Below are positions 57,363 through 62,480 of a stretch of DNA of 64,000 nucleotides, one piece after another (position 1 is the stretch's first letter; every line of letters begins with the position of its first letter). The notes under the pieces are model-generated. The model saw only the letters and a list, made by a program, of their open reading frames with translations. It searched no databases and was not told the origin of the DNA. The stretch comes from a plasmid. Position numbers and translations under genes: made by a program. The stretch lies in assembly GCF_054482525.1 (NCBI RefSeq), contig NZ_JBTHVG010000003.1, one strand, 5' to 3'.

Positions 57363-58841
57363 TCAGTTACGTGTGCCACGAATACTTTCAGTGAAAGCCT
57401 TCCGTTGCAGGCGACGGTTATCCCAGGTTGAAATGACGTCCGAGCTGGTACCGACCTGGCTGTGCGATAGCTCATAGGCGGCTTTAACCTGTTTTGAGAG
57501 ATTGTCTGTTAATCGGTTGAGATCATCCCTTTTACCCGACAGCGACTCACTCGGTATGCTCATGGTTGAAATTTTGGCCTCAACCTGGCGCAACATGTTG
57601 ATTACGAGGCTCGTCGCAGCAATAGTGCTTATGTCCTGAATGTATGCGTACCCTTCCGGTGCTTCGAATGTTTGCAAAGAGTCGATAATGGTCGGGATGC
57701 CGATATAGGAGATAATGCGTAATTCATCATCTGAAACACGAACGTCGTTGATGATTTTTTTCTGTACGTTTAAAAGAAGATCAGAAATGGTATCCTTCAA
57801 TCCCTTAAAACCACCGTCATTAACTTCTGACATGACAAGGCACTGAGCCTTTCGTGGGGATGATGGATCTGGTGCCGGAGAACACTTGAGCATTTTAATT
57901 GATCCGCCAGCTGGTGGCCCCATGATGTAATCCGTGACAGTCATGGTAGACGGGCGGACTTCCATTCCCGCTTTTTCGCCTTTGCTATCCCAGTTGATAA
58001 TGACAGTACCCACGAGAGACATAAGTTGTTCTGCCAATTTATAACCGGATAACTCCGTTACCCCTCCGATGTTCATTGTTCCCTTATCAATATCCATGAA
58101 CGACATATAGAAGAGGTTACCACTGAATTTTTCAGCGAACTCTTCGGGATCCTTTGCTTTAACCTGAGAAGTGACAGCTTCAGGTGACTTTGTCATCGAT
58201 GAGCCAAAATCAGGAATGAGACCATTAATCGATCCCAGAATTGAGGCTGGTCCAGAGCTAACTGAGTTAGCAAACTGGCTTGGCGTACCCACGTTTTCAG
58301 AAAGGAAAGAGTAAGTTGCATTGCATGAATCTTTCGCAAATTTATTTAGCGCTTGCAGTTTGTTTTGGATGTCATTAATCGTTGCAGCACAGTCAGCACA
58401 AATAGCTGAAACAGCAACGTTAAAAGCATAGATAGCCGCACCCTGGGCAATACCACGGGCCACCTGCACAAGCTGGTCCCCGTTGATCATGCTGAAGGAC
58501 CCAAGAAAAACGTCAATACCATTACAACCGACAGAAGCTTTTGGAAACGACATGGAAACAAGGTTGGTATTAACGTTTGTTGTTCGGTAAGACATTGACC
58601 CGCCAACTATGCCTGTACGGGTTGCTGTGGAAAAGGTGGCCGGGCTGGTAGACGTCATCATGCCATTGAAAATGTTACGCATTGCGTTGTCTGCATTTGC
58701 AGTCGGGGCTAAAATTGCAGCACAAACAGAAAGAGACAAAAGTAACTTTTTGAAGTTGAAAACGGCATTACTGCGCATAAGTGCCTCCAAAACTGCCGCC
58801 AGCATTGAGATAATTGACCGGATCGGCCGTAGGCATGTCAT
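57363..58841 (-). CDS. trhH: conjugative pilus assembly protein TraH/TrhH
   Basis: 492-aa ORF, periplasmic with signal peptide; true start probably an internal Met (for example near 58778), since the track ORF overlaps the trhF 3' end. Confidence 0.8.
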   Translation of the reverse strand: MTCLRPIRSIISMLAAVLEALMRSNAVFNFKKLLLSLSVCAAILAPTANADNAMRNIFNGMMTSTSPATFSTATRTGIVGGSMSYRTTNVNTNLVSMSFPKASVGCNGIDVFLGSFSMINGDQLVQVARGIAQGAAIYAFNVAVSAICADCAATINDIQNKLQALNKFAKDSCNATYSFLSENVGTPSQFANSVSSGPASILGSINGLIPDFGSSMTKSPEAVTSQVKAKDPEEFAEKFSGNLFYMSFMDIDKGTMNIGGVTELSGYKLAEQLMSLVGTVIINWDSKGEKAGMEVRPSTMTVTDYIMGPPAGGSIKMLKCSPAPDPSSPRKAQCLVMSEVNDGGFKGLKDTISDLLLNVQKKIINDVRVSDDELRIISYIGIPTIIDSLQTFEAPEGYAYIQDISTIAATSLVINMLRQVEAKISTMSIPSESLSGKRDDLNRLTDNLSKQVKAAYELSHSQVGTSSDVISTWDNRRLQRKAFTESIRGTRN

Positions 58842-59814
58842 AGCCTTCGAGTTTTTGGTCCATTATTTTTTGAAGTAAGAATGGGTCTGATTCCATTTCG
58901 GATTTATTAACGGTAATAACGCCATCATCACCGATGGTATATTGCCTTTTAATATCTAGAGTTGACTGAAACGAAGCGTCATCGATCAGATTCATGCCCT
59001 TCGCGGCAAGTATAATAGTGTTCTTTAATTCATCAGCGGAGATCATGCCTTCACTAATGCGCTGAGCTGATGTCCCATCCTTTGAAACCAGGAAAATTGT
59101 AGGTACCTCTCGAATTTTAAATTGATCAATAATTTGTGCATTGGGGATGTTAAAATCCTGAAAAAGGCCATTATGCAATGGCCTTCCATCCATACTGATT
59201 GGAAGAATATCTACCGAATAATAGTTCTGCATAAATTGAAGTATTTGGCTCTCTTCGTGGCAAAACTGGCAAGTACTCTGGAAAAAGAAAAATAAACCTG
59301 ACTTAGTAAAGATATCTTTCATTACCGTTTGCTGATTTTTTTCAACAACAGTGCGGTGAGCATCCAGTGCCACCTTTTCCACTGGTTGCCTGCGTTTTTC
59401 AGACATCATCGGGTTTTTAAGAAAATAATCTTTTGATTTGTCAGAAAAACGCGTACTGATATCCAGCATTAACCTTTGCGCCGTGTAATAACGTGATAGA
59501 TTTTCTGCGGTAGGGTTATCCATTGCCTGCGTTAACAGTCGAGGCATATTCTCTTTTAGCCATTTTGAATTTAAATCTACCTTTTCCTCTTTTGAAGGCG
59601 AGCTAGCAGCACCGGTTGGTGGCAAAACCTTTTCTTCTTCAGCTTCGCTTTTTTTAGCAGGATCGTCATACCAGAAGAAACCCTTCTTATAAGCCTGGCC
59701 TGATACAAAGGGCGTATCTTTTATTAGGGGTTGCTCAGGGCTGGCGTGGGCACCAGTAATTACCAAAGACATAAGCAAAACCATCTTTGAAGGCGCTAAT
59801 GCAATACGAGTCAT
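58768..59814 (-). CDS. trhF: conjugative pilus assembly protein TraF/TrhF (thioredoxin-like)
   Basis: 348-aa ORF with signal peptide and thioredoxin-like CQFC motif. Confidence 0.8.
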   Translation of the reverse strand: MTRIALAPSKMVLLMSLVITGAHASPEQPLIKDTPFVSGQAYKKGFFWYDDPAKKSEAEEEKVLPPTGAASSPSKEEKVDLNSKWLKENMPRLLTQAMDNPTAENLSRYYTAQRLMLDISTRFSDKSKDYFLKNPMMSEKRRQPVEKVALDAHRTVVEKNQQTVMKDIFTKSGLFFFFQSTCQFCHEESQILQFMQNYYSVDILPISMDGRPLHNGLFQDFNIPNAQIIDQFKIREVPTIFLVSKDGTSAQRISEGMISADELKNTIILAAKGMNLIDDASFQSTLDIKRQYTIGDDGVITVNKSEMESDPFLLQKIMDQKLEGYDMPTADPVNYLNAGGSFGGTYAQ

Positions 59815-60407
59815 AGACCGTTCTCCTTTTCTGATGCGGTTATGATGGCATACAAAAAAAAGGTTAGAGCTCGTATAGCATGGTCGTTTTTATGTTGAAA
59901 AGGACGGAAAAGGAGTGCTGACTAAGAAGATAGTCTCGGTGATGGAAAGATCATCCATCTTGCACATTGTGAAAAATCCGGTGTAACAAAAACATGGTTT
60001 TATCGAATATCTAAAAGCAAATATTGCTTTGAAAACAGGTGTATTAAGAGCTGAAAAAAATCATCACCAGTAACGCTGTTTCTATATTTCAAAGAAGGAA
60101 TAGCTAAGGATCAAAGAAGCGAACTTAGGCAAGAATATAAAATATATTAATTGAAAGCGATTAAGAAGTCGTCATGCATAGAAGGTTTTAGAGAACCTAA
60201 GTAGTTTTACGTTTTCAACAGAAAAAAAGGTGAACATTTTTTGGAACGAAGAAAGACTGTATAAAGAAAAATCAAATTATATCTTTACTTGTCAAGAGTT
60301 AATATTTAAGTTGTAACTAATATTTGATTGTAAAGCAAACAACAGAATTTGACTTAAGTCAATATTTAGATTCAGACAAGGCAAGTTTCGCGATATCTTT
60401 TTTAAAT

Positions 60408-60920
60408 TTAATCTAATTCTTCTTGAGAATACCTCTCTATGGCTGAAGCAGTTGAAGATAATCTGCAACGTGGACAATAAGCATCATTTGTCACTGGCAC
60501 AATGTATGGGCGTTTACATTTTTCGCAGGCACCTAGTTCTTCAATTTCTTTCATAGAAGTAAGGATTTCTATTATTTTATTAACTTCCGGTGCGCATACA
60601 AAGTATCCCAGATTATGAAGGACACTCATTATTCGGTTGAAGTCAATTTGCCGAAAACTCGCTTCCGGATTTATTGGATCAAAACCAAAATAGTTAACTG
60701 CGACATCAATAACAGCAGAAAAAGCTCGGCGGTTATCTGTGCGTTTGCTCCAGCCCCGGATACCTTTTTTGAGTTTTGTTTTTGCACCAGGCTCAAAATC
60801 GATATTTTCAGCAACATGATTACCGTACAAAATTCGTATTGTATTTTTATTTGCCCCAAGCGACATAGTCCTTGCTGCTCGCAATAGAGCATTAGCTTTT
60901 GTTTGATCGACCTTTGCCAT
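60408..60920 (-). CDS. zinc-ribbon protein, candidate transfer activator (TrhY-like by position)
   Basis: 170-aa ORF with C-terminal CEKC...CPRC; placement upstream of trhF-H-G matches my recollection of the IncHI trhR-trhY-trhX-trhF-trhH-trhG operon. Confidence 0.4.
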   Translation of the reverse strand: MAKVDQTKANALLRAARTMSLGANKNTIRILYGNHVAENIDFEPGAKTKLKKGIRGWSKRTDNRRAFSAVIDVAVNYFGFDPINPEASFRQIDFNRIMSVLHNLGYFVCAPEVNKIIEILTSMKEIEELGACEKCKRPYIVPVTNDAYCPRCRLSSTASAIERYSQEELD

Positions 60921-60921
60921 A

Positions 60922-61722
60922 TTAATAATCCTTTAACATAACTTTATTTGTTAAAGTGTTGAACACATCCTGACGGTGACTGGTGAACATAGTGTCATAA
61001 CGTAATAGTTCCATCAAATCATCACTAACTTTTCCTAACCGGATGTCAGCAGACAATTCATAAGCCCAGGCAAAAACTTTCGTTTTAAGTGAAACACTCT
61101 CTTCAATATGCCCTTGTGAGAAAGCAATTGTACGTGGGAAAAGAACGACATCGTTAATTGTTTTTAACGATGAATAACCAATGTCTTTAATAGCATCAGC
61201 TGTAGTTGGTTTTAAACCAAAGAAAACACTTACAAACTCTGGTGCGAGCATTGAGATAAAGAACACCTGCATAAAGTAGTCATTCTGTATATCAACACAT
61301 TTAGAACGCAACTCATGAATCTTCTTGGGATTATAGATATCCACTGTACCATTCAGAAAAGTCACTTTTTCACCGGCATCGTAAATACCATAGTCAATAT
61401 CATTTGTATCATATTCACGAATTACATTGGAATCACCGTCCAAGACCGCAGAAAAAAACCTCTCCCATGTAATTTCCTTTCCGAGTGTACGCGGAACCAA
61501 AAAACTACCTGGACGTGTTTCCACTTCAAAAGCTAAATCAGCGGCTGTACTAAATCCTTTCCCAAATAGGCGACGCTGGAGAAGAGGAGTCCCAGTTTGA
61601 TATGCAGAAGATCCATGCACAGGCAATAACATTAAAAATGCACGGTAACTACGAATAAGCGAAATCTCAGTGCGGAAAAGTTTACCGAGTAAGCTACGAG
61701 TTAAATTATCAGATTCTGACAT
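60922..61722 (-). CDS. candidate transfer activator (TrhR-like by position)
   Basis: 266-aa ORF, first gene of the minus-strand operon, 1 nt before the downstream gene. Confidence 0.4.
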   Translation of the reverse strand: MSESDNLTRSLLGKLFRTEISLIRSYRAFLMLLPVHGSSAYQTGTPLLQRRLFGKGFSTAADLAFEVETRPGSFLVPRTLGKEITWERFFSAVLDGDSNVIREYDTNDIDYGIYDAGEKVTFLNGTVDIYNPKKIHELRSKCVDIQNDYFMQVFFISMLAPEFVSVFFGLKPTTADAIKDIGYSSLKTINDVVLFPRTIAFSQGHIEESVSLKTKVFAWAYELSADIRLGKVSDDLMELLRYDTMFTSHRQDVFNTLTNKVMLKDY

Positions 61723-62071
61723 GTGCTGATTGTCCTTGCGCCATTACAATTGTTCAAATCTTCAACATGGATTTTTTGTTAGGTGTTCGGTAGGGTGAAA
61801 AGTAACTTTTAGTATTTTCTTAAGGCTTGAATAAGCCTTAAATCTATCCCTTCAACCACACCGCTTACTTGTAACACTTTTTAACCAAACTGACCAGAAT
61901 TTTATCAAAATTTCTTCGCATGCTAACGAAATGTGAAGCGATTAAAAAAAAACCTAAATCCAGCCCCTCCCAACGTTGGATTAGAATAACGACGTCTTTC
62001 ACTGACCGTCATAAACTGACATTTTTACTTTTCATCAACCTCATGCTTACATAGGATCACTAAACAAAGAA

Positions 62072-62191
62072 AAGTGACCCTATGAATACCTCACATAGGG
62101 TCACTTATGTTTGAAAAGTGACCCTATGTAATGTCGTCATAGGGTCACTTTTTATAAAAGTGTCACTATGGACAAAGTTCCATAGGGTCAT
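62072..62191. promoter_or_regulatory. array of three palindromic operator-like sites
   Basis: AGTGACCCTATG-N9-CATAGGGTCACT at 62072-62105 and 62117-62150, plus a degenerate third copy at 62159-62191, in the divergent intergenic region. Confidence 0.55.
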
Positions 62192-62480
62192 TTTTTTTGG
62201 AAAAGTGGCACTAGATATATGTATAACTTTAATAGAGCAATGCACATTATCAAAAGCAATAATCCACAATGGTCATTCCCTCAAAAGTAACTTTAGAGGG
62301 TAGCGATGGAAGTGAGGCTAAACTCGCTGTTACTGTTTCTGAAGGCCCCTCCCGAATGGGGGAAACAGCGAGTGCATTACATCTGTTCAATTCCCTCATC
62401 AAAGAGCATTCAAAAATCTTCTGTTCGTGAAAAAAAACGGAAATTTCCTCCGGTATAGTAATTTCACATCAGGAGGCGTC

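Follow-up and report, generated by a model that had tools for sequence, protein, structure and literature searches.

The trhY-trhF intergenic region of an IncHI2 plasmid: a non-coding spacer with a probable F-operon promoter at its trhF end

The 593 bp between trhY and trhF, in the 64,000-nucleotide stretch of plasmid DNA analysed here (contig NZ_JBTHVG010000003.1; hereafter, the window), contain no detectable gene and probably form a non-coding spacer between the R and F operons of the conjugation region, having as its core a TrhR/TrhY-dependent F promoter in the last ~90 nt before trhF and, upstream of it, a possible insulator. According to this scheme, the spacer would separate two co-directional operons, the R operon (trhR-trhY), coding for activators, and the F operon (trhF-trhH-trhG), coding for pilus assembly functions. 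The predicted core promoter would lack a -35 hexamer and consist of a T-tract and a TG-n-CATCAT element, located 33 nt before the ATG, followed by a strong Shine-Dalgarno sequence, and the resulting leader would be short, about 20 nt. By orthology with plasmid R27, the F promoter would be nearly silent alone, would be switched on by TrhR together with TrhY, and would be counteracted by HtdA; the effect of temperature on F would be indirect, through the silencing of trhR by H-NS/Hha at 37 °C. The upstream ~500 bp would block transcription proceeding from trhRY into trhF, probably by Rho-dependent termination of the untranslated read-through RNA, and H-NS coating of the AT-rich DNA possibly helps this insulation.

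Position, composition and coding content of the spacer

The window derives from an IncHI2 conjugative plasmid of the R478 type; its positions 59600-60700 are found, at 95-100% identity, in 961 PLSDB plasmids, typed as IncHI2A, MOBH and MPF_F and all predicted to be conjugative. The genes on the minus strand follow the order trhR, trhY, gap, trhF, trhH and trhG, while mobI, a traJ-like gene, traI and traD lie beyond trhR, in the divergent direction. Neighbouring tra genes are spaced by -11 to +8 bp, in contrast with the 593 bp of the gap. The coordinates of all the features discussed are reported in Table 1. TrhY is a co-activator of the F operon in R27 (PMC7366339), and the trhF product matches the TraF-like family TIGR02740 (E 2.5e-98) as well as the Pfam TraF family (E 2.6e-51). 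The name TrhF is in use for two different genes: the NCBI "IncHI-type conjugal transfer protein TrhF" is a 170-aa Tra2 gene (L016, 28558-29070; L015, 10873-11385), and the TraF-like gene of Tra1, called trhF in the literature, is annotated by NCBI just as "thioredoxin family protein".

Table 1. Features of the trhR-trhF region, in window coordinates
Feature	Position	Strand	Description
trhR	61722..60922	-	266 aa; first gene of the R operon, co-activator; annotated "trhR"
trhY	60920..60408	-	170 aa; second R-operon gene; 85% identical to R27 TrhY
trhY-trhF intergenic spacer	59815..60407	-	593 bp; AT content 68%; tra sense strand rich in pyrimidines
fast-evolving distal spacer	59911..60407	-	no coding or RNA-structure signal detectable; possible insulator between R and F operons
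IS1 insertion point in NZ_CP039440	60287..60296	.	overlaps TTGACA at 60290-60295
conserved trhF-proximal module	59815..59910	-	likely F-operon core promoter and translation initiation region
A-rich/ACC block	around 59882-59891	-	conserved in the eight-locus alignment
CGAGCTC (palindrome GAGCTC)	59867..59873	-	centre near -34.5 relative to the -10-like element; may be an activator site at the place of a -35
T8 tract	59854..59861	-	directly upstream of the -10-like element; T5-T8 there in every lineage
TGcCATCAT, extended -10-like	59842..59850	-	TG at 59850-59849, hexamer at 59847-59842; 33 nt before ATG
Shine-Dalgarno AAGGAG	59823..59828	-	8 nt before the trhF ATG (59814-59812)
trhF	59814..58768	-	348 aa; TraF-like thioredoxin-fold pilus assembly protein; first F-operon gene

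The GC content of the gap is 32.0%, as compared to 48.0% for the whole window, and corresponds to the 0.38th percentile among all windows of 593 bp; the minimum reached by such windows (30.5%) overlaps the gap, where AT peaks at 73-78% around 60200-60350. On the tra sense strand the C/G ratio is 1.53, the T/A ratio 1.30 and the pyrimidine fraction (Y) 0.578. The longest ORF entirely contained within the gap measures 30 aa. The preliminary description of this DNA, which had reported an AT-rich region of about 600 bp, devoid of ORFs, between the 170-aa gene and trhF, is accurate on both points. It had also suggested that a small gene, similar to a "trhX" and shorter than 60 aa, might be hidden there, and this part was not borne out.

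That the gap hides a gene for a small protein, or a small RNA, is in fact hardly credible. Several ORFs of 10-30 aa are found on both its strands, and in the tables of PMC7366339 the R27 numbering passes directly from R0124 (trhY) to R0126 (trhF); the absence of a locus tag R0125 suggests that an ORF of the R27 gap had been annotated at some time and was then dropped. When the gaps of six lineages were compared by tblastx, however, similarity was limited to the last ~100 nt, where every frame of either strand gave a match, as is typical of conservation at the nucleotide rather than at the coding level. A listing of the ORFs, combined with a search for ribosome binding sites, found no Shine-Dalgarno-like motif upstream of any sense-strand ORF of the IncHI2 gap. 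Relative to the window, two IncHI2 variants carry 12-13 changes in the gap, among them 1-bp indels (60053, 60190 and 60237) that no reading frame would survive. A conserved ORF filling the gap in the place of promoter elements, considered as an alternative content of the region, was not found.

As to RNA genes, Rfam returned nothing with E < 1 in the gap region; a permissive scan of 59300-61000 only produced chance matches to snoRNA and XIST families, the best with E 1.1, far below gathering scores. Terminator-like hairpins or sites were absent from both strands of the gap. No feature is annotated under it in the PLSDB records listed, in a gene table which omits pseudogenes and RNA genes. Among the matches listed in a full-text literature search, all of which dealt with other subjects, "trhX" did not occur as an IncHI gene name.

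Gaps are found at the same place in related plasmids. Between trhY and trhF, the IncHI1 plasmids R27/pHCM1 carry 611 bp free of genes, an IncHI-like lineage of E. coli (TrhY 69% identical) 746-747 bp, and another IncHI-like lineage (TrhY 82% identical) 723 bp; a gene-free gap of similar length, found in the same position in all of them, is a persistent feature, rather than a chance one. The gap of a Photorhabdus tasmaniensis plasmid reaches 2173 bp, only owing to an IS4-like transposase located inside (L008, 4033-5343). In IncHI3-type Klebsiella plasmids, an additional ORF of 180 aa (L004, 3051-3593, with equivalents in L005 and L006), which has no Pfam or NCBIfam family match, lies between trhY and traF, and is followed by a gap of 365 bp.

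The trhF-proximal module and the probable F-operon promoter

When the gaps of different lineages were compared by BLASTN, only the last 45-91 nt before trhF could be aligned. With the Photorhabdus plasmid, 91 nt aligned at 79% identity; two other lineages shared 45-49 nt at 82-84%, and R27 a core that is 95% identical (20/21 nt). Within IncHI2, two variants show no substitution in 59815-59891. The conserved elements reported in Table 1 were read from an alignment of eight loci. The most constant of them, TG-n-[C/G]AT[C/G/A]AT, is found 31-34 nt before the ATG in all seven loci compared, representing about six lineages, and a position-weight scan, performed on the gap of every lineage, revealed no other promoter-like site with a conserved position. 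The GGAG of the Shine-Dalgarno sequence is also kept across lineages, with GGGG in IncHI3. The CGAGCTC box is shared by IncHI1, IncHI2 and the Photorhabdus plasmid alone, remoter lineages having other sequences there, and may act as an activator site in place of the -35.

The -10-like element contains the key A at -11 and T at -7, as well as the TG of extended -10 elements, and CATCAT agrees with the -10 consensus at four positions out of six; by our own count, the -35 hexamer is matched at one position out of six, so that a usable -35 is lacking. An unrecognisable -35, together with a weak -10 (four out of six, plus TG), is what characterizes class II promoters, dependent on an activator, and both traits are present here. 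Strict consensus sigma-70 sites are absent from the gap (0 vs 3.3 expected), and the other lineages have comparably few of them on the sense strand. Taken together, the proximal ~90 nt look like the regulated promoter and the ribosome binding site of trhF-trhH-trhG, the exact -10 and the transcription start being predictions made from the alignment. The F, H, AC, Z, AN and R promoters, compared in R27 and IncHI2, yielded no common motif. TATGCCA was considered as a shared TrhRY-responsive motif, being present in R27 F and AC, and was rejected, as it is lost from IncHI2 AC.

The existence of a separate F promoter, its dependence on TrhR/TrhY and HtdA, and the action of H-NS at trhR are taken, by analogy, from the R27 literature. 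The Tra1 region of R27 is composed of three operons, R, F and H (Gibert et al. 2020, PMC7366339). In R27, TrhR acts jointly with TrhY as an activator of the operons F, H, AC and Z, and both are opposed by HtdA (PMC7366339). In microarrays performed at 25 °C, values of 1669 for trhR, 397 for trhY and 129 for trhF were reported for the wild type, and of 2521, 788 and 3523, respectively, for an htdA mutant, where F genes are increased 8-27-fold, and trhR and trhY 1.5-2-fold (PMC7366339 supplement). The different behaviour of trhF with respect to trhR and trhY indicates that F is served by a separate promoter, under strong regulation, which lies after trhY and hence within the R27 gap orthologous to the one described here. 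This location, and the fact that the only sequence conserved across lineages is a promoter-like and ribosome-binding module, agree with the earlier proposal that the region is a regulated promoter.

The same preliminary description had regarded the whole gap as a long leader. A long transcribed 5' leader, originating from a distal promoter or from trhY read-through and controlling trhF post-transcriptionally, for example by sequestration of the Shine-Dalgarno sequence, appears improbable. A perfect TATAAT (60276-60281) and, about 518 nt before the trhF ATG, a TACAAT are present, but neither the position nor the sequence of these distal promoter-like sites is conserved in any other lineage. The Shine-Dalgarno region GAAAAGGAG has a perfect complement in CUCCUUUUC, at 59915-59907; by our own reading of the alignment, however, this complement is absent from the closest lineage, and runs complementary to a Shine-Dalgarno sequence are expected by chance in a pyrimidine-rich sense strand. 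The proximal 201 nt fold better than their shuffles (z = -3.44), with the U-tract pairing with the Shine-Dalgarno sequence, but a consensus structure is unsupported (RNAalifold -0.6 kcal/mol, covariation term -0.08), and for the entire gap the fold is no more stable than that of shuffled sequences, either in IncHI2 (z -1.33) or in R27 (z -0.26). Searches for tandem and dispersed repeats in the gap only found short matches, at chance level. The proximal block could, on account of its fold, be leader RNA instead of a promoter. Since a conserved -10-like element stands 33 nt from the ATG, transcription probably starts downstream of most of the gap, and this makes the long leader doubtful.

The distal spacer and the proposed role of nucleoid proteins

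The distal ~500 bp, which we place upstream of the F promoter, cannot be aligned between lineages, and evolve rapidly even within IncHI2, where the gap shows 2.0-2.2 differences per 100 bp vs 0.2-0.8 in the adjacent tra genes; all the differences found in the IncHI2 gaps, 1-bp indels included, fall within 59892-60301. What recurs across lineages that are no longer alignable is the length (593-747 bp in four lineages), the AT-richness and a sense strand poor in G and rich in pyrimidines. The sense strand of the trhY-trhF gap shows, in every lineage, Y values of 0.54-0.58, C/G ratios of 1.1-1.5 and T/A ratios of 1.1-1.5. Such pyrimidine excess is absent from the regions upstream of AC, AN, Z and R, with the borderline exception of IncHI2 AN (Y 0.538), and from the flanking coding sequences. 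Among the upstream regions compared, the trhY-trhF gap is alone in following an expressed operon on the same strand. The regions upstream of trhA, in the AC operon, are also long, with 692 bp in R27 (L015, 38039-38730) and 1148 bp in IncHI2 (L016, 877-2024), and do not show the sense-strand pyrimidine bias seen before trhF.

A conserved intrinsic terminator was not found after trhY: IncHI2 and locus L012 contain none, while R27 and L009 have marginal, non-homologous candidates. Since the R and F operons are regulated very differently, and no intrinsic terminator is conserved between them, we infer that the spacer may insulate F from trhRY read-through, most plausibly by the action of Rho on an untranslated, unstructured and G-poor RNA. 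Compared with the traits of Rho terminators, the gap RNA has a C/G ratio of 1.1-1.5 in all lineages and folds weakly, but C amounts to just 19% of the sense strand, which is low for a classical rut site.

A different origin was also considered, in which the distal ~500 bp are functionless filler, produced by the decay of a lost gene or by insertions, only the proximal promoter being of importance. This is the less probable reading, although still a credible one, and it draws on the fact that the distal part is the fastest evolving of the region, accumulates indels and is unalignable between lineages, that it has received both an IS1 and an IS4-like element, and that in IncHI3-type plasmids it hosts the additional ORF and is shortened. 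Against it stands the recurrence of length, AT-richness and strand-specific pyrimidine excess after divergence beyond alignment, since neutral filler should lose its strand asymmetry. Furthermore, tblastn found no remnant of TrhY, of TrhR or of the 180-aa IncHI3 ORF (E >= 0.05 for the latter) in IncHI1 and IncHI2 gaps. Given the insertions in two plasmids, the distal 500 bp may nevertheless be without any function. The two IS insertions are independent, the IS1 being carried by the Salmonella plasmid NZ_CP039440 (L002, 2198-2964), and the IS4-like element by the Photorhabdus tasmaniensis plasmid.

The preliminary description had further proposed that the region is curved and controlled by nucleoid proteins. 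Curvature was predicted by a script of our own, based on the Bolshoy-Trifonov wedge model, and turned out to be ordinary, contrary to that proposal: the mean of the gap falls at the 69th percentile of 593-bp windows, and its maximum is 33 degrees, as compared to a maximum of 63 degrees for the whole window. The second-highest peak of the window, 54 degrees, is located near 61900, upstream of trhR and on the oriT side, in keeping with the published assignment of H-NS silencing to trhR, and not to trhF. About three pairs of inverted copies of GTGACCCTATG / CATAGGGTCAC are found at 62070-62215, within the trhR-mobI intergenic region, which we take to be the position where the R27 oriT was reported (Lawley 2002).

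In its strongest form, nucleoid-protein control would make the gap a curved thermosensing silencer, bound by H-NS/Hha and directly shutting off the F promoter at 37 °C, which we judge unlikely. H-NS prefers AT-rich DNA, and the gap is the most AT-rich stretch of the window, so that binding of H-NS is plausible from AT-richness alone. A near-match to the H-NS site, TCGATAAAAC, is found at 59997-60006, but the motif TCGWTWAATT is not enriched, with 3 matches (up to 2 mismatches) vs 5.2 +/- 2.3 in shuffled sequences. IncHI transfer is known to be repressed by H-NS/Hha, but in R27 the silencing by H-NS is assigned to trhR, and a standard F promoter-lacZ reporter fusion is induced by TrhR/TrhY overexpression even at 37 °C (PMC7366339). 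These two observations make the thermosensitivity of F indirect. The case for a direct action of nucleoid proteins at this site is weakened.

Comparison with R27, IncA/C and SXT/R391

The gap is the IncHI2 ortholog of the trhY-trhF intergenic region of R27, already studied as the F-operon promoter region (Alonso 2005; Gibert 2013, 2014, 2020), with which it shares the position and the flanking genes. TrhY and TrhF are 85% and 84% identical to their R27 counterparts, and the order mobI, trhR trhY, gap, trhF trhH trhG of the Tra1 region is of the R27 type; trhR, trhY and htdA are all present in IncHI2. The comparison with the R27 transfer region, proposed at the outset, thus found a gene-free gap at the same position, 611 bp in R27 vs 593 bp in IncHI2, with homology restricted to the proximal segment: the T-tract, TGcCATCAT, the GGAG module and the CGAGCTC box are common to both, while about 500 bp of the two gaps are unalignable. 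As the expected ortholog of a region already studied, the gap changes little by itself. The conserved module of ~90 nt narrows the search for the cis-element of the TrhR/TrhY-HtdA circuit, and the other 500 bp are not a hidden gene. IncHI2 plasmids, whose transfer is temperature-gated, rank among the main vehicles of mcr-1, ESBL and heavy-metal resistance genes.

With the thermoregulated promoters silenced by H-NS, such as those of virF, hly and R27 trhR, the gap has in common the AT-rich DNA within a plasmid system controlled by H-NS/Hha, and differs in having neither a curvature peak nor an enrichment of H-NS motifs.

TrhR and TrhY have been described as a novel IncHI regulatory pair, without assignment to a family. 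In IncA/C plasmids and SXT/R391 elements, traF-traH-traG form an operon of their own (mpf3), transcribed from a class II promoter whose -10 is poor and which lacks a -35 (PMC4542580, PMC4207636), and the activators of the mpf3 promoter, AcaCD and SetCD, are heteromers of the FlhDC family (PMC4542580, PMC4207636). The promoter proposed here resembles these traF promoters in preceding an orthologous operon, in the lack of a -35 and in the weak -10, as well as in depending, here by analogy with R27, on a two-subunit activator encoded by the plasmid. The gene pair coding for the activator also lies near mobI and traFHG in both systems (acaD-acaC in IncC, trhR-trhY in IncHI). The region upstream of IncC traF differs in being only 110 bp long and in containing a GCCC-N-GGGC AcaCD box, which is absent here.

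Owing to the similar architecture of the traFHG promoters, the kinship of TrhR/TrhY to FlhD/FlhC was checked. Four cysteines of TrhY, arranged as CxxC-N13-CxxC, are invariant and coincide in position with the zinc site of FlhC, and the TrhY profile is collinear, over 133 columns, with a profile of AcaC/SetC/FlhC, the match being weak (Prob 31%, P 5e-4). Residues 112-208 of TrhR align with residues 96-174 of AcaD (BLASTP, E 0.006 in a single comparison), but the comparison of TrhR with an AcaD/FlhD profile was not significant. Structural models of TrhR and TrhY resemble FlhD and FlhC, but the models are poor. Pfam and NCBIfam gave no matches. When 1.84 billion representative proteins were searched exhaustively with a HMMER profile, only 28 relatives of TrhY were identified, none of them linking it to FlhC. 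These 28 matches, mostly fragments, make up an extremely narrow family. Searches by sequence are insensitive within the FlhC family, as E. coli FlhC, used as a tblastn query against plasmids, misses IncC AcaC. In the searchable literature, TrhY is never mentioned together with FlhC, AcaCD or SetCD.

The kinship is accordingly a promising but unproven lead, which could as easily fail as hold. The fuller proposal, in which TrhR/TrhY are diverged proteins of the FlhD/FlhC type, equivalent to AcaDC/SetDC, positions 59815-59910 are their class II target and the upstream 500 bp are an insulator based on Rho and H-NS, is put forward only tentatively, and we would sooner expect some part of it to fail. 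This side lead would matter more than the gap itself: if TrhR and TrhY were FlhD/FlhC-like, the control of conjugation would be unified across the MOBH / MPF-F elements, from IncHI plasmids to IncA/C and SXT/R391.
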